Shown: positions 3,951 through 60,261, counted from the first letter of the stretch. The stretch is DNA of 64,000 nt from Escherichia coli (GCF_045037415.1 NZ_CP173438.1); one strand, 5' to 3'. The notes: generated by a model from the letters alone, not told the origin. Translations and numbers: made by a program.

Positions 3951-4027
3951 TGGTCGGCGAGAGAGGATTCGAACCTCCGACCCACTGGTCCCAAACCAGT
4001 TGCGCTACCAAGCTGCGCTACTCGCCG
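3951..4027 (-). tRNA. proM: tRNA-Pro
   Basis: Reverse complement gives CGGCGAG...TTCGAATCC...CCA; matches remembered proM. Confidence 0.9.
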
Positions 4028-4069
4028 AAATACTGCTTTTTGAATTTTTAGTTCAATTCTTTAAAGTCG

Positions 4070-4156
4070 TGGTGCGAGGGGGGGACTTGAACCCCCACGT
4101 CCGTAAGGACACTAACACCTGAAGCTAGCGCGTCTACCAATTCCGCCACCTTCGCA
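4070..4156 (-). tRNA. leuT: tRNA-Leu (long variable arm, 87 nt)
   Basis: tggtgcgaggggggacttgaaccccc... is the reverse complement of a class II tRNA-Leu ending CCA. Confidence 0.9.
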
Positions 4157-4175
4157 TTGTCACAACTTCTAATAA

Positions 4176-4252
4176 TGGGGTGGCTAATGGGATTCGAACC
4201 CACGACAACTGGAATCACAATCCAGGGCTCTACCAACTGAGCTATAGCCACC
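4176..4252 (-). tRNA. hisR: tRNA-His
   Basis: Reverse complement GTGGCTATAGCTCAGTTGGTAGAGC...CCA with extra 5' G. Confidence 0.9.
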
Positions 4253-4309
4253 ACTACAAATCTTGTTACGCGGTATTACTACCACCGCAGCTCAAGCGCC
4301 GGGACTAAA

Positions 4310-4386
<77 letters not shown>

Positions 4387-4488
4387 TTAGCGCCGTTGCG
4401 GGGGTGGATAATACGGACTTCCCACCCCTCTGTCTAGTCCCTTTTTAAATAAATTGCGCGTTTGGTTACGGTTTGTGCGTTTTGCTGC

Positions 4489-5874
4489 TTATTCCTCCAG
4501 TTTATGCGCTTTACCGTGGCGATTAAGCCCAAAAACTTTATAAATCGCCGTCACCGTCAGCATAAAGATGATGCCGACAAACAGCGACATACGCGTATCT
4601 TCATTAAAGTACATGCCGATCAAAACGCAAATCAGGAATGCCATTGTTACGTAGTTGGCCCAAGGGAACAGGATTGAGCGGAACGGATGGCTGGCAATTG
4701 CCGCTTTATGCGCACGACGAAAACGCAGCTGGCTAATCAATATCACAAACCATGGCACCATCCCCGGAAGCACGCTGGCACTGTAGACATAGACAAACAC
4801 ACGCTGCGGATTGGGAATGATGTAGTTCAGGCATGAGCCAATTAGCAGAATAGCAATAGATACCGCCACACCCGCAACCGGTACGCCGTGACGGGAAACT
4901 TTCGCCATCGCCGCCGGTAACTGACGGTTTTTCGCCAGTGCATAGAGCATACGTCCGCAACTGTACATGCCACTGTTACAGCCAGAAAGCGCTGCCGTCA
5001 GCACCACAAAGTTAATAATGCCCGCCGCAGCGGTAATGCCGATTTTGGCGAAAGTCAGTACGAACGGGCTGCCGTTGCTGCCTATTTCATTCCACGGGAA
5101 GATGGTAACGATAACGAAAATCGCGCCTACGTAGAAAATCAGGATTCGCCACAGCACCTTGCCTACAGCGCTACGCAGCGTCACCTGCGGATTCTTCGCT
5201 TCACCGGCAGTAATGCCAATCAGCTCCACGCCCTGGTAGGACGCCACCACAATACACAATGCGGTCAGGAACCCTTTCCAGCCACCCGCAAAGAAACCGC
5301 CATGCTCTGTGAGATTGCTAAAACCAATCGACTGCCCGCCATTGCCAAAGCCAAAGAAAATCACGCCCAGGCCAATGACAATCATCACGATAATCGTGGT
5401 GACTTTGATCATCGCGAACCAGAACTCGATTTCGCCGTACAACCTCACCGCAGCCAGATTCGCCAACGCCACCAGCGCCACCGCGATCAATGCGGGTATC
5501 CACTGCGCCATCTCCGGGAACCAGAACTGGACATAAACGCCAATGGCGGTGATTTCTGAGATCCCCACCGCCATCCACATAAACCAGTAAGACCAGGCGG
5601 TGAGATAGCCAAAGAACGGGCTCATATAACGATGCGCGTAAACGGCGAACGAACCGGTAACCGGTTCGAGGAACAACATTTCGCCCATTGAACGCATGAT
5701 GAAAAAGACGAACAGCCCGGCGATGATATAGGCCAACAATACGGATGGCCCGGCCCATTTCAGGGTACTGGCGGCCCCCATAAACAGGCCGACGCCAATG
5801 GTGCCCCCCAGGGCGATGAGTTCGATATGTCGAGCTTCCAGCCCACGCTGTAGCTCTGGTTTGTTATCTGCCAT
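4489..5874 (-). CDS. yifK: Amino acid permease (APC family), 461 aa
   Basis: ORF track; multiple hydrophobic segments; expected position between the tRNA cluster and the ECA cluster. Confidence 0.9.
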
Positions 5875-6064
5875 AAATCCTCGTGTTGTGTTTGCATGCT
5901 TTCCGGTGTTACCGGTTATCGTTATGGGTACATCGAGTGTTGCGAATGTTTTCGTAATTCAGGAGAAATGGCAAATAAAGCATTAAAAATTTGAATGCTT
6001 TGTGTAATAAAAAAGCAGACAGGCGACGGAGTGACCACTTCGTCGCTTTACAAAGAGAGGAAAA

Positions 6065-6805
6065 TCAGAGGTTGCCGGTATAGTGCCAGCGTAAATAACG
6101 CAGCAAACGAAGCTGACGCTTAATGCGGCTCGGCTGCGAAAGCAGGCGGTAGAGCCACTCCAGCCCCAGCGTTTGCCAGATTTTCGGTGCGCGTTTTACG
6201 TGACCGGTGAAAACATCGTAGGTCCCGCCAACGCCCATATACAGCGCATCTGGATGCACCAGACGGCAGTCGCGCATGAAGATCTCCTGCTTTGGCGATC
6301 CCATCGCAACGGTGACGATTTGCGCTCCGCTGGCATGAATGCGTTCAAACAGCGCCTGACGCTGCTCGGGTTTAAAATAACCATCCTGGCTGCCAACGAT
6401 ATTCACATTCCACTGGTTGCGCAGTTTAGCTTCAGTTTGCGCCAGCACTTCAGGTTTACCGCCCACAAGAAATACCGGTGTCCCTTCTTTGCCTGCGCGC
6501 GCCATCAGCTCTTCCCAGAGATCGGCCCCAGCAACGCGGGAAACCTGCGCCTGCGGGTACTTTTTACGTACTGAACGTACAACGCTTATGCCATCCGCAT
6601 ATTTAAATTCGGCAGCGTTAATTAGCTCCCGGACCTCGGCGTTATCTTCAATGGTCAGCATTTTTTCGGCATTAATGGCAACCAGCGTTCCTTGCTTAAG
6701 CTGCCCGTCAGCGAACAGATAATCGAGGGCGTGCTGCATATCACGCCAACCAATCAACTGTAAGCCACGCAGCGTATAGGTCGGTGCCGTGGTGTTGTTA
6801 TTCAT
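6065..6805 (-). CDS. wecG: UDP-N-acetyl-D-mannosaminuronic acid transferase (ECA)
   Basis: ORF track 246 aa; last gene of the ECA cluster. Confidence 0.9.
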
Positions 6806-6807
6806 TA

Positions 6808-8160
6808 TTATCCTTCAACCTGCGTCCGGAGCGATGATTTTGTTCGTTTATGAATGAGTCCGGCGCTTTCAAAAAGCCAGTACAACAGTTTTGCGATCAT
6901 CAGACATGCGCCGAAGACCACGATAAAAAAGACCACGCGTGAGACAAACGAATCCAGCCCTTCACGCGCCAGCACGATCATATTGAAGATCGCCCCGAAG
7001 CAGAAACTGTGCAATATCGCAGCCTTATAGCGATTAGTCTCGCGGTTGCCCAGCTCATACAGCCAGTCGAACCATTTGATGATCAGTCCAACAACAATCG
7101 CCCCGAGCGGGATGAACAACGCGCCGCCCATCACCACCAGTGAGCCTATAAGCGTAGGCGAGATCGCCAGTCCGGAGTGGTTATTCAGCACTTCCCAGGT
7201 AAAGTAGTTGGCGGAGTTCAGCACCATACTCGGGCGACCCGGCCACAGCCAGGAAGGGATAAAGACATAGAAATCGCGGACAATTGGAGCCAGGCCCTGG
7301 AAGTCGATGTTGTCGTAGTTCTGCAACAGCAACGCCAGATTCTCCCACGGTGAAAAGGTGTCGCGAGTGAGATAGAGAAACGTATAGAACGCTTCATCGC
7401 CGCTCACATTCATTCCATAGCGTTTTAACGCCAGCCAGAACATGCCCACAATCCCCAGCACGCCCGCCGCCGCCAGCATCCACAACGAAATCCAGCCGCG
7501 AATAATGCCAATAAACAGGAAGATAGCGAATGCGATGATGATATTGGCGCGAGTGCCGCCGACAATCATATAAGTCAGCAAGCCAAAAGCGACCGTGCTG
7601 ACGAGGAAAAACAGCCACGCTTTGCTGTCCTGGCGCAGAAAGTAGACCACCAGCATCGCCGGGATGAAAAAGTAAAAGAAGCGTTTTAACGCCACGCCGG
7701 AGACTTCACTGGAGAAGATCTGACTGTAGGAGTTAAGCCGGAACAGCAAAAAGCCGTTGTGCATGAAGAAGATGCCGACGCTTACCAGCGCGATGCCCAT
7801 CAGGATCACCCACGTGAGATTGGTTTCCACGCGGTTCATGGTAAACAGCGGACGGCGCGGTACATCAGCAACGCGTTTGCGTAGGCGGGTTTTGTAGGTG
7901 ACGTAGTAAACCGCGTAGAAGCAGCCCGCAGAAAGCAACGCCTGCAACAAGATTTCTGGCGGCGCGGCACCAACATCAAAGCGAAAAACCAGCACGCTGG
8001 TCAGCGGGAAGCCGAAGAAAAAGGTGAGCAAAAACAGCAATGAAAAGAAGACATTGAAGTTAAAGCGCACACGGCGAAACTCAAACCAGGTCAGCGTGGC
8101 AATAAACAGCGTGCAGAGCAGCCAGACAACAAACAGGCCACTGAATTGCAGCAGACTCAT
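6808..8160 (-). CDS. wzyE: ECA polymerase, polytopic membrane protein
   Basis: ORF track 450 aa, highly hydrophobic. Confidence 0.9.
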
Positions 8161-9236
8161 GCGACCTCCCCGGCGGCAATCGCCAACGCCCGCTGCCAGC
8201 CTTGCAGATAGTTCGGGCTAAAGAAGGCAATGGTGTTTTTATCCACCGACACCAACTGGCGCTGCGCTTCACGCACAATATCCTCGTTGAGATCGTCGGT
8301 AGTAAACAGCACCGGCAAATGCTGTTCCGTCATATCCTGCCAGAACGGATTTTCCCGGTTAAGCACACAAGGAATGCCCGCCTGAATCAGTAAGCACAGC
8401 GTACCAATGCCCTGCTGGCGGGCAAAAATAAAGTAACCAAGATCGCACTGACGAAGTAGCGCCAGATAGGCGTCAAATTCCAGTTTTTCGCTCAGAGTTT
8501 GTAGATTTTCTTCGCTGAATAACTCCAGCCCCGCCTGACGAACTTCCTCGATGTACGCTTCGTTATTAGGCGGATATCCCATCGGCACCACCACTTTTAC
8601 CGTATCGCCAAATTGCTGATAAACGGCGCGCAAGGCAGCAATATGTTCATTGCTGCGGTCACCGGAGTTCCCCACCAGAATGGTCATTTTCCCTTCACGT
8701 TGCCGATCATTCGCCATCATATTGAGTGAAGGGTCCATCCGCGTCGGGAAGTACAGCAGTTCTCCCCGCACCTTTGGATGCGTTTTGGCAAAAAAGCTCA
8801 AATCACCGCGGGTGGCAAATACACAGCCGACTCTCTTTTGCGCCAGGCGACGTAGCGGGTAAAAAAGCTTATATCTCAAGCCACTGGAAAGCTCGTACAG
8901 GTCTGCCCCCCAGATATGCCAGTAAAACTGGCTGGGCTTAATGCCACCACTCAGCAGAGCCAGCCACAGTGTGGGATTGAACTGACCGTGGAAGAAAAAA
9001 CGCTGCTGACGGTTAGCTTTTGCTTTCGCGATGACCGCTTCCGCCAGCGATTTTTTCCCAGGGAAAAATTGCACAGAAAGCGCCGGACAGCTATCACTTA
9101 AGCCGTCGTCCTTGCCAACAACCATAAACTCGCGCGCGTGCTCGCTCGTCGCGGCCAGCGCGTCATTGAAAAACCGCAAAACGGTTCGGTTATGGTGAGG
9201 GATATCCGATCCCAGTACGTGAATCAGTACAGTCAT
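8157..9236 (-). CDS. wecF: TDP-Fuc4NAc:lipid II transferase (ECA)
   Basis: ORF track 359 aa; 4-bp overlap with wzyE. Confidence 0.9.
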
Positions 9237-10483
9237 GCCCGCCTACGCCAGAGTAAAAACACGCCACAACAAAGAGAAAAATAGACGATATAGGTTGCCA
9301 TATAGGCCTGCGCCGCGCCCAGTGCACCATGCGCAGGGATTAGCCAGTGGGCAAATACCATCAATAAAGTGAACTGGCTGACTTCCGCCAGAATATAAAA
9401 CCGCAGTGACGCTTTGGCGATCACCAGATAACCAAAGACATAAGCGCCCACTTTTAACACATCACCCACCAACTGCCAGGCAAAGAGATCGCGCATAGCG
9501 GTAAATTTATTCGACAACAGCAGCCAGATAGCAAAATCACGCAGCAACCAGACGGTAAAACTCGCCGCCGCCACTGCCGGCAAGACGAATTTAAGCGATT
9601 TAACCACTTCCCGGGTGATATCGCGCTTTTCCGTTAGCCGCGACAACGTGGGCAGCAAATATACGCTGAACGATGCCGTAATAAATTGCAGGTAGGCATC
9701 GGAAATACTGCTCACCCCTTGCCAGATCCCCACCTCATCCCAGCTATACTGCGCCGCCAGCAGTTTACGCATCATGATGTAAGCAACAGGCAAGGTCACC
9801 GACGTAATCAACGCCATGAGCGTAAATTTGCTCAACTGCCCTGCCAGACCGTTATCCCAGCTGGGTTTCAGATAGCTTAACGGGATGACACCACGTTTGA
9901 TCAACATGATGGCGGCAGGAATTACCACCAGCGCGGGAATCAGCGCCAGACCCAGCAACGCCCCTTCATAACCGCCCAAACGGTAACTGACGTAGTACGC
10001 GAGAACGCCAATCAAGCTGCCAACAATCAGAGATAACGCATTACCTGCGGCATCGCGAAAGCCTTTCATCAGCGCCAGTAACAGGTTGCCCCAGGCGATC
10101 CCCATTTGCACCAGCGCCACTAAACGCACCAGCCCCTGATAGTCGGTATTACCAAACAATCCCTGGCTGATTGGCGCAGCTGCCAGCACAAAAACCAGCG
10201 CCATCAGCGTAGAGAAACCAAGTACCATCGCTGATGAAGTGCCGACCACGCGGCGCAGCTGTTGCGGATTATCATGGTACTGGGCAACGTATTTGGTTAC
10301 ACCGTTAAAGATGCCAGCCCCGGCAAGCACGCCGAGCACGGTAATCAACTGGCGGAAATTTGCCGCCAGCCCAAGCCCCGCCGGACCAAATGACACCGCC
10401 AGCAACTTACCGACTAGTAACCCGGCACCAATCTTGACCAGTGTACTGGCCGCCGTCCACAAGGACGCTTTTGCCAACGACAT
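9233..10483 (-). CDS. wzxE: ECA lipid III flippase
   Basis: ORF track 416 aa, polytopic; 4-bp overlap with wecF. Confidence 0.9.
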
Positions 10484-10484
10484 A

Positions 10485-11615
10485 TCAGGAGAAGTAGTTC
10501 AACAAAGTCGCAATTACCGTACGCTGATTGACGGGCGACAGGTTGTAGAACAGCGGCAGGCGCAGCAGGCGCTCGCTCTCTTTGGTGGTGTAGCGATCTT
10601 CACCGTGGAACTCACCAAAGTGTTCCCCCGCAGGGCAACCGTGCAGCGGAATGTAATGAAACACCGCCATGATTTCCGCTTCTTTCAGAAAGTTAATCAA
10701 CGCGCTCCGGTCATCAATATCCCGCAGTTTAATGTAGAACATATGCGCGTTCTGCACGCAGCCATCGGGAATCGACGGCAGCTCGATACGCCCATTTTTT
10801 GCCAGAGGCGCCAGTGCATCGTAGTAGTTTTGCCACAGCGCCAGACGCTGCTGATTGATACGATCCGCTGCTTCCAGTTGCGCCCACAGGTACGCTGCTT
10901 GCAGATCGGACATCAAATAGCTGGAGCCAATATCGCGCCAGGTATATTTATCGACCTGACCACGGAAGAACTGGCTGCGGTTTGTGCCTTTTTCACGGAT
11001 GATCTCGGCTCGTTCGATCAACGCTTTATCGTTAATCAGCGTCGCGCCGCCTTCACCACCCGCCGTGTAGTTTTTGGTTTCATGGAAGCTAAAGCAGCCA
11101 ATATGACCAATGGTTCCCAGCGCACGCCCTTTGTAAGTGGACATCACGCCCTGAGCGGCATCTTCCACCACAAATAGATTATGCTTCTTCGCCAACGCCA
11201 TAATAGTGTCCATTTCGCAGGCCACACCCGCGTAATGGACCGGCACGATAACGCGCGTTTTGTCGGTGATCGCCGCTTCAATCAGCGTTTCGTTGATGTT
11301 CATGGTGTCCGGGCGAACATCCACAAAGACGATTTTCGCGCCACGCAGCACAAAGGCATTGGCGGTGGAGACAAAGGTGTAGCTCGGCATGATCACTTCA
11401 TCGCCAGGCTGGATATCGAGCAGCAGCGCCGCCATCTCCAGCGAAGCGGTGCAGGACGGCGTCAGTAACACTTTGGCGCTGCCAAAACGTTGCTCCAGCC
11501 ACTGCTGGCAGCGACGGGTAAAACCACCATCGCCGCACAGTTTGCCGCTACCCATTGCCGACTGCATATAGTCGAGTTCGGTTCCCACCACCGGCGGTGC
11601 GTTAAATGGAATCAT
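10485..11615 (-). CDS. wecE: TDP-4-keto-6-deoxy-D-glucose transaminase (PLP-dependent)
   Basis: ORF track 376 aa. Confidence 0.9.
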   Translation of the reverse strand: MIPFNAPPVVGTELDYMQSAMGSGKLCGDGGFTRRCQQWLEQRFGSAKVLLTPSCTASLEMAALLLDIQPGDEVIMPSYTFVSTANAFVLRGAKIVFVDVRPDTMNINETLIEAAITDKTRVIVPVHYAGVACEMDTIMALAKKHNLFVVEDAAQGVMSTYKGRALGTIGHIGCFSFHETKNYTAGGEGGATLINDKALIERAEIIREKGTNRSQFFRGQVDKYTWRDIGSSYLMSDLQAAYLWAQLEAADRINQQRLALWQNYYDALAPLAKNGRIELPSIPDGCVQNAHMFYIKLRDIDDRSALINFLKEAEIMAVFHYIPLHGCPAGEHFGEFHGEDRYTTKESERLLRLPLFYNLSPVNQRTVIATLLNYFS

Positions 11616-11619
11616 GTGA

Positions 11620-12294
11620 TCACCTGTATAACCAGTACGCGGTGCTTTCTACATTCGCACCACTTTGTATGTATCGTTTAAGCGCGGCGGTGTTGCCCAT
11701 CTGGGTCGCCACCCGCAAAGTTGTTTTACCGCGAGCATACGCCCAGTTTAGCGCCGTTTGCATTAGCTCAGCACCTGCACCGCGTCCAGCCAGCAGGCCA
11801 ATTCGCGCATCTGTCGCATTGAGTTCCCGTAAAGAGACATAACCGCGAATATCGCCGGACGCCGCACGTAAAATCAGACATTGATGATCAAAGGTGCCGC
11901 GCACGGCATTTTCAATCCACTGTGCATAAAAGCGACCGCTGGCGTCAGGCGCATACCACGGCGCACGAAAACGGCTTTGCGCAAATGCGGCGCTGGCTAA
12001 CTGACGTAATGCGGGAATATCGGTCTCTTGTGCCACTACTGCACCGCTATCACTGACATTGTTCACGGGTAGTGCCAAATCAACTTCACCTTCTATCAGG
12101 GAGAATCCCAGCTGTTGCAGAGCATCCAGTTCACCCGTATTTGATGCCGCAATTTTGGCCTGCACCCGTGACCACGGCGCTAAGGCGTCTGGCGTCAGGA
12201 GTGCCGCGTCAGGGCTAATACGCACAATGGCGCTGTTAACACCAAAGAAGGCGTTTTCCCAGGTTAGTGGCTCAATACTGGCGCGGACGGGCAC
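11620..12294 (-). CDS. wecD: TDP-fucosamine acetyltransferase (GNAT)
   Basis: ORF track 224 aa; 3' overlap of 23 bp with rffH start. Confidence 0.85.
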
Positions 12295-13153
12295 GAAGTA
12301 ACTCCAGCAGATATTGGCCGTAGCCAGTTTTCGCTAATGAACTGGCAGCACGCTTCACACCCTCGTCATCGAGCCAGCCGTTACGCCAGGCAATCTCTTC
12401 CAGGCAGGCAATCTTAAAGCCCTGGCGTTTTTCTACTGTCTGCACAAAAGTGCTGGCCTCAATCAGGCTGTCGTGAGTGCCGGTATCCAGCCAGGCAAAT
12501 CCGCGCCCGAGCAGTTCAACGGTCAGGTTGCCCGCCTCGAGGTACATCTGGTTGATGGAGGTAATCTCCAGTTCACCACGCTCCGACGGCTTCACCTGCT
12601 TTGCGTACTCCACGACTTTACTGTCGTAGAAATAAAGCCCGGTCACCGCCCAGTTTGATTTCGGCTGTTTTGGTTTTTCTTCCAGCGAGATAGCGCGGAA
12701 ATTGTCGTCAAACTCCACCACGCCAAAGCGTTCCGGGTCCATCACCTGATAGCCAAATACCGTCGCCCCTTCCGTGCGCGCCGCAACATGACGCAGTTTC
12801 GGACTGAAGCCCTGTCCGAAGAAGATGTTATCGCCCAGCACCAGACAAGAAGGTTCACCGTTGAGGAAGGTTTCACCGATGATAAAGGCCTGCGCCAGGC
12901 CGTCCGGACTGGGCTGTTCGGCATATTCCAGCTGGATACCGAACTCACTGCCGTCACCCAGCAGGCGCTGGAAATAACCTTTATCTTCCGGCGTAGTGAT
13001 GATGAGAATTTCGCGGATACCGGCCAGCATCAGCACCGACAGCGGATAGTAAATCATTGGCTTATCGTAAATCGGCAACAGTTGCTTAGATACGCCGCGC
13101 GTAATCGGATGCAATCGGGTGCCGGAACCGCCCGCCAGGATAATACCTTTCAT
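12272..13153 (-). CDS. rffH: Glucose-1-phosphate thymidylyltransferase
   Basis: ORF track 293 aa, N-terminus [18 protein letters not shown]. Confidence 0.9.
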
Positions 13154-13171
13154 GTTTGCCTCCGCTGAAAA

Positions 13172-14239
13172 TTAGCCTTTCAGACCTAAACGCTCGCCCT
13201 GATAGCTGCCGTCCTGCACCTGCTTCCACCAGCTTTCATTAGCCAGATACCACTGCACCGTTTTACGCATTCCACTTTCAAAGGTTTCCTGCGGCAGCCA
13301 GCCAAGTTCACGGGCAATTTTCGAAGCATCAATGGCATAACGCAGATCATGCCCCGGACGGTCAGCGACAAAGGTGATCAGGTCACGATAGTGCGCCACG
13401 CCGTGCGGCTTATTCGGAGCCAGTTCTTCCAGCAGCTCGCAAATGGTTTCCACAACATCGAGATTCTTACGCTCGTTGTGACCACCAATATTATAGGTTT
13501 CACCGACTTTCCCGGTGGTCGCCACGCAATACAGCGCGCGGGCGTGATCTTCAACATACAGCCAGTCACGGATTTGCTGCCCGTTGCCATATACCGGCAG
13601 CGGTTTACCCGCCAGCGCGTTGAGGATCATCAGCGGGATCAGTTTTTCCGGAAAGTGGTAAGGACCGTAGTTATTCGAGCAGTTGGTGATAAGCGTCGGC
13701 AGACCATAGGTCCGCAGCCAGGCGCGCACCAGATGGTCGCTGCTGGCTTTTGACGCGGAATAAGGGCTGCTCGGCGCATACGGCGTGGTTTCGGTGAAGA
13801 AATCATCCGTCGAGTGCAGGTCACCATATACTTCGTCGGTGGAGATATGATGAAAACGGAACGCTGATTTTTTATCTTCCGTCAGCGCAGTCCAGTAAGC
13901 CCGCGCCGCTTCAAGCAGTGTATAAGTCCCGACAATGTTGGTTTCAATAAACGCTGCCGGGCCGTCAATAGAACGGTCAACATGGCTTTCGGCTGCCAGA
14001 TGCATGACACAGTCTGGCTGATACTCAGTGAATACGCGCGCCAGTTCTGCCCGATCGCAGATATCAACTTTCTCAAAGGCAAAGCGCTCGCTTTGCGCGA
14101 CCGGTGCCAGCGACATCAGGTTTCCGGCGTAGGTCAGCGTATCGACCACCACCACCGCGTCGCTCGTTTCGTTGATGATATAACGCACCAGCGCCGAGCC
14201 AATAAACCCGGCACCACCTGTTATCAGAATCTTTCTCAT
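13172..14239 (-). CDS. rffG: dTDP-glucose 4,6-dehydratase
   Basis: ORF track 355 aa, N-terminus [16 protein letters not shown] (Rossmann). Confidence 0.9.
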
Positions 14240-15501
14240 CAGCGCCAGACTCCTTTGGCATCGACGACATACTGCTGATGGACGTTGTCGCCATTGATAA
14301 CTTTGAACTGACTATGATCGACCAGCATCACCAGCACATCTGCCGTTGCCAGCGCCTCGTCAAGCTGCGCCAGAGTACAAAGCCCGGTCAGTTTCTTCGG
14401 CAACTGGTGGATGTTAGGCTCAACAACCAGCGTTTCGCCGCTGTGCCACTGGGCGATCAGTTCAGCGATTTCCATTGCCGGACTTTCGCGCAGGTCATCA
14501 ATATTCGGTTTAAACGCCAGACCAAAGCAGGCGATTTTCAGTTCATTGGCGCGTTTATCGGTAGCAGCCAGACAATCAGCCACCGCCGCTTTCACCTGAT
14601 CGATAACCCAGAACGGTTTGTGATCGTTCACTTCGCGCGCGGTACGGATAAGCCGCGCCTGCTGGGGGTTCTGTGCCACGATAAACCACGGATCAACAGC
14701 GATGCAGTGACCGCCCACGCCAGGGCCTGGCTGAAGAATATTGACGCGAGGGTGACGATTCGCCAGGCGAATCAGTTCCCAGACGTTAATCCCCTGATCG
14801 GCACAAATCAGCGACAATTCATTAGCAAAAGCGATATTCACATCGCGGAAGCTGTTTTCGGTGAGCTTACACATTTCCGCCGTCCGCGAGTTAGTGACGA
14901 CACACTCACCTTCGAGGAAAATTTTGTACAGTTCGCTGGCGCGGGCCGAACAAACCGGCGTCATACCACCAATCACGCGATCGTTTTTAATCAGCTCGAC
15001 CATAACCTGGCCCGGTAATACGCGTTCCGGGCAGTAAGCAATGTTGACGTCCGCCAACTCGCCCACCTGCTGTGGGAAAGTGAGATCTGGACGCATCTCT
15101 GCTAACCATTCTGCCATCTTCTCGGTTGACCCCACCGGCGAGGTGGATTCAAGGATCACTAACGCGCCTTTTTTCAGCACTGGCGCAATGGAGCGAGCAG
15201 CCGATTCAACGTAGGTCATATCTGGCTCATGATCGCCTTTAAACGGTGTGGGTACAGCAATCAACCAGGCATCCGCTTCAACTGGCGTCGTGCTCGCTCG
15301 TAAAAAACCGCCTTCTACGGCAGTTTTTACTACGCTCGCCAAATCAGGCTCGACGATATGGATTTCGCCACGATTGATGGTATCAACCGCGTGTTGGTTG
15401 ATATCGACACCAATCACCTGTTTTTGCCTTGAGGCAAACGCAGCTGCTGTAGGCAGCCCGATGTAACCCAGTCCGATAACAGAAATGGTCGCAAAACTCA
15501 T
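14239..15501 (-). CDS. wecC: UDP-N-acetyl-D-mannosamine dehydrogenase
   Basis: ORF track 420 aa, N-terminal GxGxxG. Confidence 0.9.
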
Positions 15502-16628
15502 AGTGATATCCGATTATTTTTTAACGCTTCCAGAATGCGAGAGCATGCCTGACCATCACCATACGGGTTATGGGCGCGGCTCATAGCTTGATATTCGTTT
15601 TCGTCTTTTAAAAGACGCGTCACTTCCTCGACAATTCGCTGCTTATCCGTGCCGACCAGACGCACCGTACCCGCCGTCACCGCTTCCGGACGCTCAGTGG
15701 TATCGCGCATCACCAGCACCGGTTTCCCCAGCGAAGGCGCTTCTTCCTGAATGCCGCCTGAGTCGGTCAAAATCAGCCAGGCGTGGTTCATCAGCCAGAC
15801 AAACGGTAAATACTCCTGGGGATCGATCAGAATGACATTTTTCACATGCCCCAGAATGCGATTGACCGGCTCTCTGACGTTCGGGTTGAGATGCACCGGA
15901 TAGACAATCTGGATGTCCTGGTGCGTGGTGGCGATGTCTGCCAGCGCATGGCAGATTTCTTCAAAGCCACGACCGAAGCTCTCACGCCTGTGACCGGTCA
16001 CCAGAATCATCTTTTTATCGGGGTCGATAAACGGGTAATTTGCCGCCAGTTCTGAACGCAGCGTATCGCTGCTCATCACCTGGTCACGCACCCATAACAG
16101 TGCATCAATGACTGTATTACCAGTAATGAAGATTCGGCTATCCGCAACGTTTTCACGCAGCAAGTTTTGCCGGGAAGTTTCGGTTGGAGAAAAATGATAC
16201 ATCGCCAGATGCCCGGTCAATGTACGGTTAGCCTCTTCCGGCCACGGCGAATAGAGATCGCCCGTGCGCAGACCAGCCTCAACGTGACCAACAGGAATAC
16301 GCTGATAAAACGCCGCCAGGCTGGTTGCCAGCGTCGTCGTAGTATCGCCGTGAACCAGCACGACATCTGGTTTGAACTCGGCAAGAATAGGTTTTAGCCC
16401 TTCCAGAATCCGACAGGTTATCTCTGTAAGGCCTTGTCCTGGCTGCATTATGTTGAGATCGTAGTCAGGTACAATGGAAAAGAGTTTCAGCACCTGATCG
16501 AGCATCTCCCGATGCTGCGCAGTGACGCAAACTTTAGCCTCAAAAAAAGGATCTTTTGCCAACGCATGCACCAACGGTGCCATCTTGATGGCTTCCGGGC
16601 GCGTACCAAATACAGTCAGTACTTTCAC
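15498..16628 (-). CDS. wecB: UDP-N-acetylglucosamine 2-epimerase
   Basis: ORF track 15498..16670; start trimmed to GTG giving [15 protein letters not shown] (376 aa). Confidence 0.85.
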
Positions 16629-16683
16629 ATCGATTCTCTTCGAATAAGCGGCGAGCGCCTTTGCGCTCACCGCAGCAGTGTTG

Positions 16684-17730
16684 CTATTTCGAGCAACGGC
16701 GGGTTAATGCGACACCAGCCCCGATCAGTCCCCCGACAATGCCCCACATAATCATCAGGAAGGCACGACGTGGGCTATCGCGTTTTACCGGTTCTTCCGG
16801 CGTACGCAAATAGCGATAGGTCTGAAAACGCGGATCCAGGGTTGGACCAACATTCAGGGTGTTTAACATGGCCCGATTTTGATCATAGTCGAGATCAAAG
16901 GCCGGACCGACGGCCTGTAAATTTTCCAGTCGAGCCTGGAGCATTGGACGCCCAAGCAGGAACATTTCTGAATCAGGTAATTCCTCGGCAGGCACATCTG
17001 TCGCACTGCGCGAAATATTATGCTGCTCAGCAATTTTCAGCGCCTGTTCAATACTGTTCATCCGGCGGTCATAGATGGCTTTCGCCACCTCTTCCTGACG
17101 CTTCACCTGAGCTTTCATCTGGATAGTGCGTGCCGCCCATGCGCCTTTCAGCTCATCATTCAGATGGCTGGCTGCACGCTGGCTGGCAAAAGCAACATAC
17201 TGACGTAACAGGTTATTAGCGTCAGGCGCGGTTTCGGCAATAAGCTTCACGCTGTCATTGACCGCGCGGGTAAAGTCACCGGGAATAAACACGATGTTGT
17301 TAATCATTTCATCCAGCAACGCCGCATCGGCTTTGCTGTTGCCCACCATCCGCTGTTTGTAATAGTCGGTTTGCAGCCAGAACTCTCTGCGGGTATCCCA
17401 CGAGGCCAGTTGCATAACAAACTCTTTATAAGCTTCGTCCATGACCGATGGTTGGTCGGCAGAAGCCATGTTTGAACGGACATCCAGGTTACGCAAAAAT
17501 TGCTGCTGTGAGTAGTACCCGCCCAGCATATTCACCGTTGGACGATCGGTAATCGCCGTCGCGCTCCACTCCTGACGAGCAAAAAAAGTATACGCCAGCG
17601 CGATTAACGCAAACGCCAGCCCCATGCCAATAATCCATAGCTTCCCAGCCCACAAGGTACGAAACAACCCACGAATATCCAGTTCATTTTCAGCGTCTTC
17701 GGCCGGTTTCCCAGGCATTGGTTGTGTCAT
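16684..17730 (-). CDS. wzzE: ECA chain-length regulator
   Basis: ORF track; start at second Met (MTQPMPGK...). Confidence 0.9.
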
Positions 17731-17741
17731 CACATCCTCAT

Positions 17742-18845
17742 TTATTTGGTTAAATTGGGGCTGCCACCACGATTTCTACGCAGTCTGCGTTTTACGCGCT
17801 TAATAAAGCGAGCAACTTTCCAGGCACGCTTGATGCAATATCCATAGAGGAAGAATGCTAGCAAAAAGAGCACCAGCATGACCCACTCCGGGACAAAATG
17901 AGAATATTCTGCCAGCACGCCAATGGAAGCGAGCAATGCTGCGGCAAGGGTAATCAGCACAAACGCCTGGCGGGAAGTAAACCCGGCACGCATGATCAAA
18001 TGGTGAATATGCTGACGGTCTGGAGAGAATGGGCTCATGCCTTTACGCAGGCGACGGTACATAATCGCCACCATATCCATTAGCGGAATGGCGATAATCC
18101 ACAAAGCGGTAACCGGGCTGATGGGATGAGTTTTGCCCTGGGTCGTTTCGAGCAGGATCCAGATAACGGTAAAACCAATCAGCGTACTGCCCGCATCCCC
18201 CATAAAGACTTTGTAGCGGCGACCCAGGATACCAAGGTTAAGCATGATGTATGGCAGGATGGCGGCGATCATCGCAAAGCACCAGATTGCGAGACTGGTT
18301 TGCCCGTCGAACCACAAAATCATACCGATTGCTGCAAACGAGACGCAGGACAACCCGCCCAGCAAGCCATCAATGCCATCAACCATGTTGAACGCATTAA
18401 TGGCCGCCCAGACGGCAAATAGCGTCAGGAAGTAACCAAACGGTCCGAGCACCATCTCCCAGGAGCCAAAGATATAACCCAGGCTACTGAGATAAAGTTT
18501 GCCGAACACCATCATAACAATGCCAACAGCGGCCTGTATGGTGGCTCGGATTTTTACGCTGATATCAAAACGGTCATCCAGCGCGCCAATGAAAACAAGC
18601 ACACCAGCACAAGCGAGATAGAGAGATGCATGCGGAATATAGTAGTCGACAATTCCGAACGTGAAGCAAATCCCTGCGTAAACCGAAATCCCCCCAACGA
18701 GAGGTATCAATCCCTGGTGACGTTTGCGGAAGTTTGGTTTATCCACTAAACCGACTTTTTTTGCCACCTTACGGGCAAAAAACAGAAACAGTGTCGTGAA
18801 TAAAAAAATACTGATGAGATCAGTACTCACTGTCAGTAAATTCAC
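17742..18845 (-). CDS. wecA: UDP-GlcNAc:undecaprenyl-phosphate GlcNAc-1-phosphate transferase
   Basis: ORF track 367 aa, polytopic. Confidence 0.9.
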   Translation of the reverse strand: MNLLTVSTDLISIFLFTTLFLFFARKVAKKVGLVDKPNFRKRHQGLIPLVGGISVYAGICFTFGIVDYYIPHASLYLACAGVLVFIGALDDRFDISVKIRATIQAAVGIVMMVFGKLYLSSLGYIFGSWEMVLGPFGYFLTLFAVWAAINAFNMVDGIDGLLGGLSCVSFAAIGMILWFDGQTSLAIWCFAMIAAILPYIMLNLGILGRRYKVFMGDAGSTLIGFTVIWILLETTQGKTHPISPVTALWIIAIPLMDMVAIMYRRLRKGMSPFSPDRQHIHHLIMRAGFTSRQAFVLITLAAALLASIGVLAEYSHFVPEWVMLVLFLLAFFLYGYCIKRAWKVARFIKRVKRRLRRNRGGSPNLTK

Positions 18846-19084
18846 AATGCATGCTCTCAGAGAAAATTATTAGCAGAAGTATAACCACGAAGACCTTTAT
18901 TCAGAAAGGAAAGTCCGTTCCGAACCTACCAGCACTATGCGAAAATTAACCACTTGATATGCAAATTGCATAACACACCAGCAAATTCCAGGAATTTTCC
19001 TAACATCGCCAGCGCGGCATTAAGATTACAGATATAAAAGCAAAACGCCACGTAAACACGTGGCGTTTTTGGCATAAGACAAAT

Positions 19085-20344
19085 TTATGAGCGTTTCATC
19101 ATTTCGAAGAAATCGTCATTGGTCTTGGTCATTGCCAGTTTATTAATGAGGAATTCCATTGCATCGATTTCGCCCATCGGGTGAATGATTTTGCGCAGGA
19201 TCCACATTTTCTGCAGTTCTTCCTGAGTCGTGAGCAGCTCTTCTTTACGGGTACCGGAACGGTTGTAGTCGATAGCCGGGAAGACGCGTTTTTCAGCGAT
19301 CTTACGAGAGAGGTGCAGTTCCATGTTGCCTGTACCTTTAAACTCTTCGTAGATAACTTCGTCCATTTTAGAACCGGTATCGATAAGCGCCGTCGCGATA
19401 ATGGTCAGGCTGCCGCCCTCTTCCACGTTACGCGCCGCACCGAAGAAGCGTTTCGGACGATGCAGGGCGTTGGCGTCCACACCACCGGTCAACACTTTAC
19501 CTGACGCCGGAACAACGGTGTTGTAAGCGCGCGCCAGACGAGTGATGGAGTCGAGCAGAATGATAACGTCTTTCTTGTGCTCAACCAGGCGTTTCGCCTT
19601 CTCGATCACCATTTCCGCAACCTGAACGTGGCGAGATGCGGGTTCGTCAAAGGTAGAAGCAACAACTTCACCTTTTACCAGTCGCTGCATCTCGGTTACT
19701 TCTTCCGGACGTTCGTCGATCAGCAGAACCATCAGCACACAATCCGGGTGGTTGTAAGCAATGCTCTGAGCAATGTTCTGCAGCAGCATGGTTTTACCGG
19801 CTTTCGGCGGTGCCACAATCAGACCACGCTGACCACGACCGATAGGTGATGCCAGATCCAGTACGCGAGCGGTTAAATCTTCCGTAGAACCGTTACCACG
19901 TTCCATACGCAGACGAGAGTTTGCGTGCAGCGGGGTTAAGTTCTCAAAGAGGATTTTGTTGCGGGCGTTTTCAGGTTTGTCGAAGTTAACTTCGTTAACT
20001 TTCAGCAGCGCAAAATAGCGTTCACCTTCTTTCGGCGGGCGAATCTTACCAGAGATGGTATCACCAGTGCGGAGGTTGAAACGGCGGATTTGGCTAGGGG
20101 AAACGTAGATGTCATCAGGACCGGCGAGGTAGGAGCTGTCTGCGGAACGGAGGAAACCAAATCCATCCTGCAATATCTCCAGTACGCCATCACCAAAGAT
20201 ATCTTCGCCACTCTTTGCGTGCTGCTTCAGGATGGCAAAAATAATGTCCTGCTTACGCATACGAGCCAGGTTTTCCAGCCCCATATTTTCGCCGAGAGTG
20301 ATCAGCTCAGAAACCGGCGTATTCTTTAATTCGGTAAGATTCAT
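19085..20344 (-). CDS. rho: Transcription termination factor Rho (419 aa)
   Basis: ORF track 19085..20416; start trimmed to MNLTELKNT; Walker A GKT present. Confidence 0.95.
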
Positions 20345-20428
20345 AGTGGTGTGAGTTCTTAAACTTGGGGTAAATCTCGAACTTAATGTTGTGAATGGTA
20401 TGGCAGGATCATCCATGCCTGTTTACGG

Positions 20429-20530
20429 TCATCGACTCATGTCTTTTCGCTGCCTGGTCACAGGAGAGTACGCAGAACTGAAACGACAAGACGGATTGAG
20501 TGACGAGCCAGAAATCTGTTCACTTCGCAT
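20429..20530 (-). CDS. rhoL: rho operon leader peptide (33 aa)
   Basis: Reverse-strand ORF translates to MRSEQISGSSLNPSCRFSSAYSPVTRQRKDMSR; sits between trxA and rho. Confidence 0.75.
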   Translation of the reverse strand: MRSEQISGSSLNPSCRFSSAYSPVTRQRKDMSR

Positions 20531-20670
20531 TTAAGATAAAACGGGAAGCGTTGGAAATTACAAGATTCAAACTTAATAAGGTATGTTTAATACGAAGTCA
20601 ACACTAAGTTAGCATGACTCACGCCGGGCGTCCAGTTTTTAGCGACGGGGCACCCGAACATGAAATTCCC

Positions 20671-21000
20671 TTACGCCAGGTTAGCGTCGAGGAACTCTTT
20701 CAACTGACCTTTAGACAGTGCGCCCACTTTGGTTGCCGCCACTTCACCGTTTTTGAACAGCAGCAGAGTCGGGATACCACGGATGCCATATTTCGGCGCA
20801 GTGCCAGGGTTTTGATCGATGTTCAGTTTTGCAACGGTCAGTTTGCCCTGATATTCGTCAGCGATTTCATCCAGAATCGGGGCGATCATTTTGCACGGAC
20901 CGCACCACTCTGCCCAGAAATCGACGAGGATCGCCCCGTCCGCTTTGAGTACATCCGTGTCAAAACTGTCGTCAGTCAGGTGAATAATTTTATCGCTCAT
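20671..21000 (-). CDS. trxA: Thioredoxin 1 (109 aa, WCGPC active site)
   Basis: ORF track 20671..21105; start trimmed to [13 protein letters not shown]. Confidence 0.95.
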
Positions 21001-21130
21001 ATATAACTCCACAGGAATAAGCCTGGCGTGTTGGTTTCGTTGTTGGTGTAACATTAACCAACTAAAGGTTGACTTTATTTCACCGGATACGCTTTCGTAA
21101 AGCAATAGTAAGCTGATATTCTACCACACT

Positions 21131-38854: not shown

Positions 38855-38930
38855 TGGCAGGGGCGGAGAGACTCGAACTCCCAACACCCGGTTTTGGAGA
38901 CCGGTGCTCTACCAATTGAACTACGCCCCT
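38855..38930 (-). tRNA. trpT: tRNA-Trp
   Basis: Reverse complement AGGGGCGTAGTTCAATTGGTAGAGCACCGGTCTCCAAAACCGG...CCA. Confidence 0.9.
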
Positions 38931-38938
38931 AATTAGGG

Positions 38939-39015
38939 TGGCGGAACGGACGGGACTCGAACCCGCGACCCCCTGCGTGACAGGCAGGTATTCTAACCGA
39001 CTGAACTACCGCTCC
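38939..39015 (-). tRNA. aspT: tRNA-Asp
   Basis: Reverse complement GGAGCGGTAGTTCAGTCGGTTAGAATACCTGCCTGTCACGCAGG...CCA. Confidence 0.9.
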
Positions 39016-39067
39016 ACCGAATTCTTTTACAACCACCGGTTTTATGACCGGCTTACTGCTTAATTTG

Positions 39068-39187
39068 ATGCCTGGCAGTTCCCTACTCTCGCATGGGGAG
39101 ACCCCACACTACCATCGGCGCTACGGCGTTTCACTTCTGAGTTCGGCATGGGGTCAGGTGGGACCACCGCGCTAAGGCCGCCAGGCA
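39068..39187 (-). rRNA. rrfC: 5S ribosomal RNA (120 nt)
   Basis: Reverse complement TGCCTGGCGGCCTTAGCGCGGTGGTCCCACCTGACCCCATGCCGAACTCAG...CTGCCAGGCAT. Confidence 0.95.
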
Positions 39188-39287
39188 AATTCTGTTTTAT
39201 CAACACGTCCCGTTATGACCTGTTGATTCAATCTGTTATCAAGCTTACTTATCGATGTCTCTTCCGCCAAAACATCTTCGGCGTTGT

Positions 39288-42191
<2,904 letters not shown>

Positions 42192-42384
42192 TCACAACCC
42201 GAAGATGTTTCTTGCGATTCATCATCGTGTCGCGAAAATTTGAGAGACTCACGAACAACTCTCGTTGTTCAGTGTTTCAATTTTCAGCTTGATCCAGATT
42301 TTTAAAGAGCAAATATCTCAAACATCACCCGAAGATGAGTTTTGAGATATTAAGGCAGGTGACTTTCACTCACAAACCAGCAAG

Positions 42385-42460
42385 TGGCGTCCCCTAGGGG
42401 ATTCGAACCCCTGTTACCGCCGTGAAAGGGCGGTGTCCTGGGCCTCTAGACGAAGGGGAC
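42385..42460 (-). tRNA. gltU: tRNA-Glu in the 16S-23S spacer
   Basis: Reverse complement GTCCCCTTCGTCTAGAGGCCCAGGACACCGCCCTTTCACGGCGG...CGCCA. Confidence 0.9.
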
Positions 42461-42545
42461 GTATCAGTCTGCTTCGCAAGACGCCTTGCTTTTCACTTTC
42501 TATCAGACAATCTGTGTGAGCACTGCAAAGTACGCTTCTTTAAGG

Positions 42546-44087
<1,542 letters not shown>

Positions 44088-59439: not shown

Positions 59440-59883
59440 ATGGCAGATATCACTCTTATCAGCGGCAGCACCCTCGGCGGTGCCGAATATGTAGCAGAAC
59501 ACCTGGCTGAAAAGCTGGAAGAGGCGGGTTTTACCACCGAAACGCTGCACGGTCCGCTGTTGGAAGATTTATCTGCCTCGGGGATCTGGCTGGTTATCAG
59601 CTCAACCCACGGTGCCGGAGATATTCCGGACAACCTTTCTCCTTTCTATGAAGCATTGCAGGAACAGAAGCCCGATCTTTCTGCGGTCCGCTTTGGCGCA
59701 ATCGGTATTGGTAGTCGTGAATATGACACCTTTTGTGGGGCTATCGATAAAATCGAGGCAGAACTCAAAAATTCCGGAGCAAAACAGACAGGCGAAACAC
59801 TGAAGATCAACATTCTTGATCACAACATTCCGGAGGATCCGGCAGAAGAATGGCTGGGATCGTGGATTAATTTACTCAAATAA
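59440..59883 (+). CDS. mioC: Flavodoxin-like FMN protein MioC (147 aa)
   Basis: ORF track; MADITLISGSTLGGAEYVAEHLAEKLEEAGF; transcribed toward oriC. Confidence 0.95.
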   Translation: MADITLISGSTLGGAEYVAEHLAEKLEEAGFTTETLHGPLLEDLSASGIWLVISSTHGAGDIPDNLSPFYEALQEQKPDLSAVRFGAIGIGSREYDTFCGAIDKIEAELKNSGAKQTGETLKINILDHNIPEDPAEEWLGSWINLLK

Positions 59884-59895
59884 GTATACAGATCG

Positions 59896-60173
59896 TGCGA
59901 TCTACTGTGGATAACTCTGTCAGGAAGCTTGGATCAAACGGTAGTTATCCAAAGAACAACGATTGTTCAGTTTTTGAGTTGTGTATAACCCCTCATTCTG
60001 ATCCCAGCTTATACGGTCCAGGATCACCGATCATTCACAGTTAATGATCCTTTCCAGGTTGTTGATCTTAAAAGCCGGATCCTTGTTATCCACAGGGCAG
60101 TGCGATCCTAATAAGAGATCACAATAGAACAGATCTCTAAATAAATAGATCTTCTTTTTAATACCCAGGATCC
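59896..60173. other. oriC: Chromosomal replication origin oriC
   Basis: Reverse complement matches the classic E. coli oriC: DnaA boxes R4 (59906-59914), R3-like (59945-59953), R2 (59980-59988), R1 (60086-60094), three 13-mers, 14 GATC sites, BamHI site at 60168-60173. Confidence 0.95.
60108..60151. repeat. oriC DNA-unwinding element: three AT-rich 13-mers (R 60108-60120, M 60123-60135, L 60139-60151)
   Basis: ctaataagagatc, aatagaacagatc, aaataaatagatc are the reverse complements of GATCTCTTATTAG, GATCTGTTCTATT, GATCTATTTATTT. Confidence 0.9.
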
Positions 60174-60261
60174 CAGGTCTTTCTCAAGCCGACAAAGTTG
60201 AGTAGAATCCACGGCCCGGGCTTCAATCCATTTTCATACCGCGTTATGCGAGGCAATCACC

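Follow-up and report, generated by a model that had tools for sequence, protein, structure and literature searches.

We conclude that positions 6065-18845 of a 64,000-nucleotide (nt) stretch of Escherichia coli DNA (NZ_CP173438.1, GCF_045037415.1; hereafter the window) are the canonical, intact wec (rfe-rff) operon for enterobacterial common antigen (ECA), a reading of both identity and anatomy to which we assign a probability of roughly 90%. Twelve unbroken reading frames with no internal stops run along the minus strand from 18845 down to 6065, as judged by a listing of open reading frames (ORFs) in 4000-21000 and by direct translation, in the order wecA, wzzE, wecB, wecC, rffG, rffH, wecD, wecE, wzxE, wecF, wzyE, and wecG. 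In a megablast search the interval was 100% identical over 12,781 nt to several annotated RefSeq E. coli chromosomes, and the PGAP annotation of a 100%-identical record, like the annotation of K-12, lists the same 12 genes with identical lengths. Aligned with K-12 over the 13,020 nt that separate the stop codons of rho and wecG, the window shows 241 substitutions and no indels, or 98.15% nucleotide identity. All 12 proteins match NCBIfam models end to end and above curated cut-offs; most of these models are of the equivalog kind, with the top models for WecA (TIGR02380) and WecE (TIGR02379) classed as 'exception' and 'subfamily', respectively. The cluster is flanked by rho (19085-20344) on one side and by thrP (yifK) and four tRNA genes (3954-4386) on the other.

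A prior sequence-only reading of this DNA had described a complete, intact 12-gene ECA cluster on the minus strand, to be checked by alignment to a reference wec cluster. Genome identity, the indel-free K-12 alignment, and the profile matches all bear this out, and the alignment revealed neither frameshifts nor missing genes. Databases and papers already contain the cluster and its genes, the wecB GTG start, and the general association of 4-nt overlaps with translational coupling. The finding is a correct reading of a textbook operon and carries little weight as a discovery; the comparative by-products described below refine a known system in minor ways and do not amount to a new kind of system.

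The 12 genes would be co-transcribed from a promoter region between rho and wecA, and their products would build the ECA repeat unit, N-acetylglucosamine (GlcNAc)-N-acetylmannosaminuronic acid (ManNAcA)-4-acetamido-4,6-dideoxygalactose (Fuc4NAc), on undecaprenyl phosphate, flip it, polymerize it, and set chain length. The first step, transfer of GlcNAc-1-phosphate onto undecaprenyl phosphate, belongs to wecA (rfe; 17742..18845, 367 amino acids (aa), GTG start; TIGR02380, 575 bits), which is followed by the ECA chain-length regulator gene wzzE (16684..17730, 348 aa, ATG start; NF008645, 693 bits). Sugar precursors are the province of wecB (rffE; 15498..16628, 376 aa, GTG start in an AUGUGA context; TIGR00236, 621 bits), a UDP-GlcNAc 2-epimerase gene; wecC (rffD; 14239..15501, 420 aa), for UDP-N-acetylmannosamine dehydrogenase; rffG (13172..14239, 355 aa), for dTDP-glucose 4,6-dehydratase; rffH (12272..13153, 293 aa; TIGR01207, 534 bits), for glucose-1-phosphate thymidylyltransferase; wecD (rffC; 11620..12294, 224 aa, GTG start), for dTDP-fucosamine acetyltransferase; and wecE (rffA; 10485..11615, 376 aa; TIGR02379, 734 bits), for dTDP-4-keto-6-deoxyglucose transaminase. 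The last four genes encode the Lipid III flippase (wzxE; 9233..10483, 416 aa), the Fuc4NAc transferase (wecF, rffT; 8157..9236, 359 aa), the ECA polymerase (wzyE; 6808..8160, 450 aa), and the ManNAcA transferase (wecG, rffM; 6065..6805, 246 aa; NF002980, 445 bits).

Of 5,426 complete E. coli genomes searched by megablast with 6065-18845, 5,424 carry the cluster at a coverage of at least 80%; one genome had no match and one fell below 80% coverage. One of the matches sits on a record labelled as a plasmid. Antisense ORFs within the cluster (e.g., 10239-11177, 312 aa; 14278-15018, 246 aa) were considered as genes and rejected, having no Pfam match and no annotation in any record. An Rfam scan of the whole window found no known RNA families inside 6065-19084.

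Gene junctions and translational coupling

We measured the distance between successive genes on the minus strand by direct translation of the window. The stop of one gene overlaps the start of the next by 4 nt, as ATGA, at wecB/wecC (15498-15501), wzxE/wecF (9233-9236), and wecF/wzyE (8157-8160). At wecC/rffG a single nucleotide is common to both genes (TGATG, 14237-14241), and at rffH/wecD the overlap reaches 23 nt, the first 23 nt of wecD (12272-12294) lying in a different frame within the 3' end of rffH. The sequence-only reading had listed these five overlaps, of 1 to 4 bp at the first four junctions and of 23 bp at rffH/wecD, and every one was exact on measurement. The other junctions are spaced, by +1 nt at wecE/wzxE (TGATATG), +2 nt at wzyE/wecG, +4 nt at wecD/wecE, +11 nt at wecA/wzzE, +18 nt at rffG/rffH, and +55 nt at wzzE/wecB.

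For comparison, we scanned species-representative genomes for WecE, which yielded 80 loci; 71 of these are wec clusters, ranging from Escherichia to Proteus, Photorhabdus, Yersinia, Erwinia, and Edwardsiella, plus one from the Pasteurellaceae. Homologs in these 71 loci were located by tblastn, and their starts and stops were modelled. The tight junctions are conserved: ATGA recurs at wecB/wecC in 58 of 69 loci, at wzxE/wecF in 62 of 69, and at wecF/wzyE in 58 of 69, with five more at -1. The +1 spacing of wecE/wzxE is kept in 57 of 70 loci, and nine others have -1. Wherever rffG is present (40 loci), wecC overlaps it, and rffH overlaps wecD by 23 nt in 35 of the 36 loci with rffH. In the same loci the loose junctions vary widely, with wecA/wzzE mostly at 3 to 57 nt, wzzE/wecB at -4 to 184, rffG/rffH at 6 to 185, and wzyE/wecG mostly at -17 to 51. 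We conclude that the wec overlaps are real and conserved, and not due to chance, yet they are ordinary for bacterial operons because -4 and -1 are by far the commonest distances between co-directional prokaryotic gene pairs (PMC10666635; PMC6728339).

The overlaps had also been taken to suggest translational coupling, with ribosome-binding sites at each junction proposed as a check. We scored Shine-Dalgarno (SD) strength as the energy of pairing with the anti-SD, taking medians across loci against a background median of -3.8 kcal/mol. Sites were weak at wzxE, wecF, and wecC and strong at wzyE and wecD. Medians at or weaker than background were found for wzxE (-1.9 kcal/mol), wecF (-3.9), wecA (-3.2), and wecB (-3.6), and the wzxE and wecF starts have no SD site in most of the 71 loci; in the window, too, the wzxE start lacks one. 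Strong medians, from -7.4 to -8.2 kcal/mol, characterize rffG, rffH, wecE, and wzyE, with the window carrying AGGTGATC before wecE and a strong GGGGAGG inside wecF before wzyE. The tight junctions fall into two kinds when SD strength is combined with start-site accessibility. The SD-poor starts of wecC, wecF, and wzxE have opening energies of 4.8, 5.7, and 6.5 kcal/mol, respectively, and are more open than the background of 8.7, whereas wzyE (8.8 kcal/mol) and wecD (8.3) have good SDs and are no more open than background.

These two kinds of junction would suit two routes to coupling. Compact junctions would let ribosomes ending one gene begin the next, and such termination-reinitiation would be likeliest at wecE/wzxE, wzxE/wecF, and wecB/wecC, where the downstream start is SD-poor and, by prediction, has less structure than background. 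At wecF/wzyE and rffH/wecD, with a good SD in a start region whose openness does not exceed background, the likelier route would be the unmasking of a structured start. WecF, WzxE, and WzyE respectively make, flip, and polymerize undecaprenyl-linked intermediates, and coupling would keep the enzymes making, flipping, and polymerizing these lipid-linked intermediates in step.

Several points weigh against coupling. ATGA is self-preserving: any change in it destroys either a start or a stop codon, so its conservation is expected even without coupling, and the conserved geometry is no proof of it. Genes with an SD of their own, namely rffG, wzyE, wecD, and wecG, could initiate independently, and open, SD-poor starts could also initiate de novo. 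Among five native E. coli pairs with a 4-nt ATGA overlap, four are strictly coupled but one, bioBF, is not (Huber et al. 2019, PMC6728339); coupling is abolished at a spacing of about 20 nt (PMC6728339; PMC10666635). A search of the literature on coupling or start codons of wec genes turned up nothing specific.

An alternative is that the overlaps reflect passive compaction of the operon, each start and stop being under its own selection and each gene initiating independently. The general abundance of -4 and -1 distances, which makes nothing special of wec, the usable SDs on rffG, rffH, wecE, wzyE, and wecG, the openness of most start sites relative to background, which makes SD-independent initiation possible, and the precedent of bioBF all agree with it. 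It does not readily account for wzxE, which is essentially devoid of an SD in 70 species yet in 66 of 70 loci sits at a distance of 1 nt (or -1) from the stop of wecE, nor for the wide variation, in the same loci, of junctions free of codon constraints, and four of the five E. coli pairs with a 4-nt overlap that were tested proved coupled. We therefore regard uncoupled compaction as unlikely, although it deserves to be kept in view, and think it probable that at least some of the wec junctions are truly coupled. The suggestion of the sequence-only reading is thus plausible, given the conserved geometry, the SD-poor starts, and the published ATGA pairs; coupling itself stays at the level of a probable property, judged from sequence.

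Start sites of wecA, wecB, and wecD and the wzzE-wecB hairpin

The GTG start that had been proposed for wecB is right (16628, codon 16626-16628, context cgAUGUGAaa; K-12 3970133), but the description was incomplete, as wecA (18845, codon 18843-18845; K-12 3967916) and wecD (12294; K-12 3974467) also start with GTG. The longest possible wecB ORF would begin at a GTG at 16670, but it is the annotated start that is conserved (offset 0 in 68 of 69 loci). Among Enterobacterales, GTG opens wecA in each of the 65 loci whose 5' end is intact and wecB in each of the 68, and the only ATG starts of either gene are those of the Pasteurellaceae locus. Other start codons vary in the same loci (wecD, 19 GTG, 48 ATG, and 4 TTG; rffG, 18 ATG, 14 TTG, and 8 GTG; wzzE, 55 ATG, 11 GTG, and 2 TTG).

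An AGAGA element that pairs poorly with the anti-SD lies 6-9 nt upstream of the GTG in both wecA and wecB. Before wecA this is a purine-rich, weakly SD-like GAGAG (18854..18858, 9 nt upstream of the GTG), for which GAGAG or AGAGA is found in most of the 5' regions compared and whose anti-SD pairing in the window is -2.7 kcal/mol. Before wecB it is AAGAGA (16635..16640, 6 nt upstream), with a G-A-G-A that is invariant in a 25-sequence alignment and found in most of 69 loci. The wecB start has been catalogued as a GUG in an AUGUG context without an SD (PMC9841429). We rejected the overlapping AUG-UGA 'start-stop' of the AUGUGA model (PMC9841429) as a conserved feature, since the AUG is not conserved beyond close relatives.

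Between wzzE and wecB, the 55-nt spacer contains an 11-bp GC-rich hairpin, GCGGUGAGCGC-AAAG-GCGCUCGCCGC (16648..16673). The segment 16626-16690 that holds it folds at -28.9 kcal/mol (z = -4.35), and a spacer hairpin is present with differing sequence in most species, with compensatory changes at five of seven consensus pairs. As the spacer is identical to that of K-12, a Term-seq RNA 3' end mapped there at 3970120 can be placed at 16641, 7 nt past the hairpin and 13 nt upstream of the wecB GTG. This end has a Rho score of 1.37 ('No', not Rho-dependent) and an intrinsic terminator score of 2.88, under the threshold of 3.0 (PMC7815308, supplementary files 1 and 3). Read coverage in K-12 falls from 176 upstream of the hairpin to 130 downstream, a drop of about 26% (PMC7815308).

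The hairpin is, as far as its structure and position indicate, a weak terminator or a 3'-end-protecting structure. One possibility is that it is a partial intrinsic terminator, giving an abundant wecA-wzzE transcript and a rarer read-through, instead of a processing or stability element. The GC-rich 11-bp stem and the position of a non-Rho-dependent 3' end just downstream agree with partial termination, as does a U5 tract after the stem in E. albertii. Against this, no U-tract directly follows the stem in the window, where the tail is UUAUUCG, or in most genera, where it is not U-rich; a consensus terminator scan did not report the hairpin; and the intrinsic score is subthreshold. The modest fall in coverage also means that the hairpin can be at most a weak terminator or a processing site. 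We hold partial termination to be somewhat less likely than the contrary, but a serious candidate.

The simplest reading of the GTG and AGAGA sites would be that selection keeps initiation low for the two enzymes committing UDP-GlcNAc and undecaprenyl phosphate. Together with the hairpin and RNA 3' end after wzzE, these weak sites probably set low, distinct levels of the entry enzymes. A stronger version, in which the GTG starts, AGAGA elements, and covarying hairpin make up a post-transcriptional layer not described before, acting as a selected throttle on translation that possibly has a specific RNA or protein ligand, strikes us as doubtful. If true, such a layer would set how much is made of the two enzymes through which UDP-GlcNAc and undecaprenyl phosphate are drawn into ECA, O-antigen, and the N4-receptor glycan.

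The 23-nt overlap implies a long form of WecD, and this form is well supported. When aligned, all 36 loci with rffH have a start codon at this position, and the N-terminal peptide PVRASIEPL is conserved even in loci that lack rffH. NF008212 covers WecD residues 1-224, and the 224-aa form is the one solved in the crystal structure (PDB 2FS5/2FT0). It could be argued that some overlaps are annotation artefacts, with the true wecD (and wecB) start further downstream, which would make the 23-nt overlap and the GTG starts unreal; the older TIGR02382 model spans only WecD residues 44-224, and the K-12 WecD protein record is a revised version (YP_026256.2). Given the evidence just cited for WecD, and the fixed position of the wecB GTG with its conserved MKVLT, we consider such an artefact very improbable.

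The wecD start codon co-varies with the SD inside rffH (12272-12320): the Escherichia/Citrobacter group pairs GTG with GGAG, and Serratia, Yersinia, Photorhabdus, and others pair ATG with GGAT or GGAC. Start and SD alike lie within codons of rffH, and the pattern looks like compensation in a stretch of DNA read in two frames.

Promoter region, operon ends, and the rest of the window

The rho-wecA intergenic region (18846..19041, minus strand), assigned from a terminator scan and the sequence, lies downstream of the rho terminator hairpin (19069-19042), the only convincing terminator in the scan, and contains the wec promoter or promoters. Four transcription start sites and sites for PdeL and NsrR have been reported upstream of wecA (PMC8669472). 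A consensus promoter scan returned 6 promoter-like matches, fewer than the 10.8 found in shuffled sequence. Ten of the 11 non-coding differences from K-12 fall within 71 nt of this region (18907-18977). The diverged segment overlaps the reported region of PdeL, NsrR, and transcription start sites. Across E. coli genomes, identity in the 196-nt promoter region reaches as low as 80-90%, in 353 of them, against 95% or more for the cluster as a whole. The divergence is probably ordinary non-coding drift or recombination.

Within early wecA, a Term-seq RNA 3' end has been mapped 30 nt into the ORF under two growth conditions (K-12 3967945, window 18816; PMC7815308). A hairpin at +22 to +42 followed by U7 was evaluated as an attenuator and rejected, with a fold z of 0.27 and the published 3' end at +30 falling inside its loop; the U-run is accounted for by the first membrane segment, with its Phe, Leu, and Ile codons.

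At the other end of the operon, wecG is followed by no canonical terminator. The U-run of a hairpin at 6046-6023 lies 8 nt downstream of it, and no Term-seq 3' end is recorded there in the rows of the PMC7815308 supplement that were covered. Among those rows, the next K-12 3' end after that of wzzE is 3980881 (window 5880), 6 nt before the thrP start (PMC7815308). The wec operon may therefore read into thrP.

Elsewhere, the window spans the replication-origin region between mioC and mnmG (gap about 59880-60260) and includes an rrn operon (38858-44087), GlmZ (192-398), and a thermometer in the TrxA 5' untranslated region (20971-21070). It also carries an intact ilvG (about 33680-35330, 1647 nt); the K-12 copy carries a frameshift, so the DNA does not come from K-12.

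Relation to other wec clusters and to coupled gene pairs

The 12-gene form is one of at least three layouts, because rffG and rffH are both absent from the cluster in 30 of the 71 loci (L007, L009, L011-L014, L016-L019, L021, L022, L024, L026, L028, L034, L037, L039, L041, L045, L048, L051-L053, L056, L057, L060, L061, L071, and L073) and rffH alone is absent in five more (L023, L047, L049, L050, and L070). Two assemblies labelled Citrobacter youngae differ from each other, L007 having neither gene and L010 having both, which suggests repeated loss or gain. Outside the wec clusters, WecE homologs sharing 66-69% identity are present in metagenome-assembled genomes of Lachnospiraceae, Erysipelotrichaceae, and Ruminococcaceae, in Beduini, and in Marinobacter (L075-L083), an identity unusually high for proteins of different phyla. 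None of these is accompanied by the rest of the wec cluster, and some adjoin rmlA/rmlB-like genes.

Pathway imbalance traps undecaprenyl phosphate and damages the envelope, so the by-products of this comparison could be relevant to work on ECA expression, which might be guided by the fixed junctions, the SD-less starts, the GTG/AGAGA starts, the hairpin and its 3' end, and the absence of rffG/rffH.

In the ten-gene clusters (Enterobacter, Klebsiella, Erwinia, Pantoea, Rahnella, and others), the other ten genes keep the order seen in the window and the same ATGA at wecB/wecC, wzxE/wecF, and wecF/wzyE. In clusters without rffG/rffH, however, wecC directly abuts or overlaps wecD, and there is no 23-nt rffH/wecD overlap. 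The dTDP-glucose in the ten-gene clusters presumably comes from rmlA and rmlB at other sites; the rffG/rffH and rmlA/rmlB enzymes have been described as partially redundant (PMC7439462). The ECA-like cluster of the Pasteurellaceae, from Spirabiliibacterium pneumoniae (L073), likewise has ten wec homologs in the same order and neither rffG nor rffH. Its proteins are 23-72% identical to those of the window, and its wecA and wecB start with ATG and lack AGAGA.

The coupled E. coli pairs hyfHI, astDB, ydbH/ynbE, as well as menDH (PMC6728339) resemble the wec junctions in being co-directional, in their 4-nt ATGA overlap, and in having an SD of variable strength inside the upstream gene. Coupling has been measured for those pairs, whereas the likeness of the wec pairs is one of sequence, and the wec products are pathway enzymes and not known subunits of one complex.

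The closest counterpart is the wec operon of K-12 MG1655 (b3784-b3794 plus b4481: wecA-wzzE-wecB-wecC-rffG-rffH-rffC-wecE-wzxE-wecF-wzyE-rffM), which has the same genes, order, and lengths as the window. The two differ by 28 amino-acid changes, seven each in WecD and WecF and none in WecA. Start and stop codons are the same in both, as are the distances at the junctions and the genes on either flank, with rho upstream and thrP and the argX-hisR-leuT-proM tRNAs downstream.

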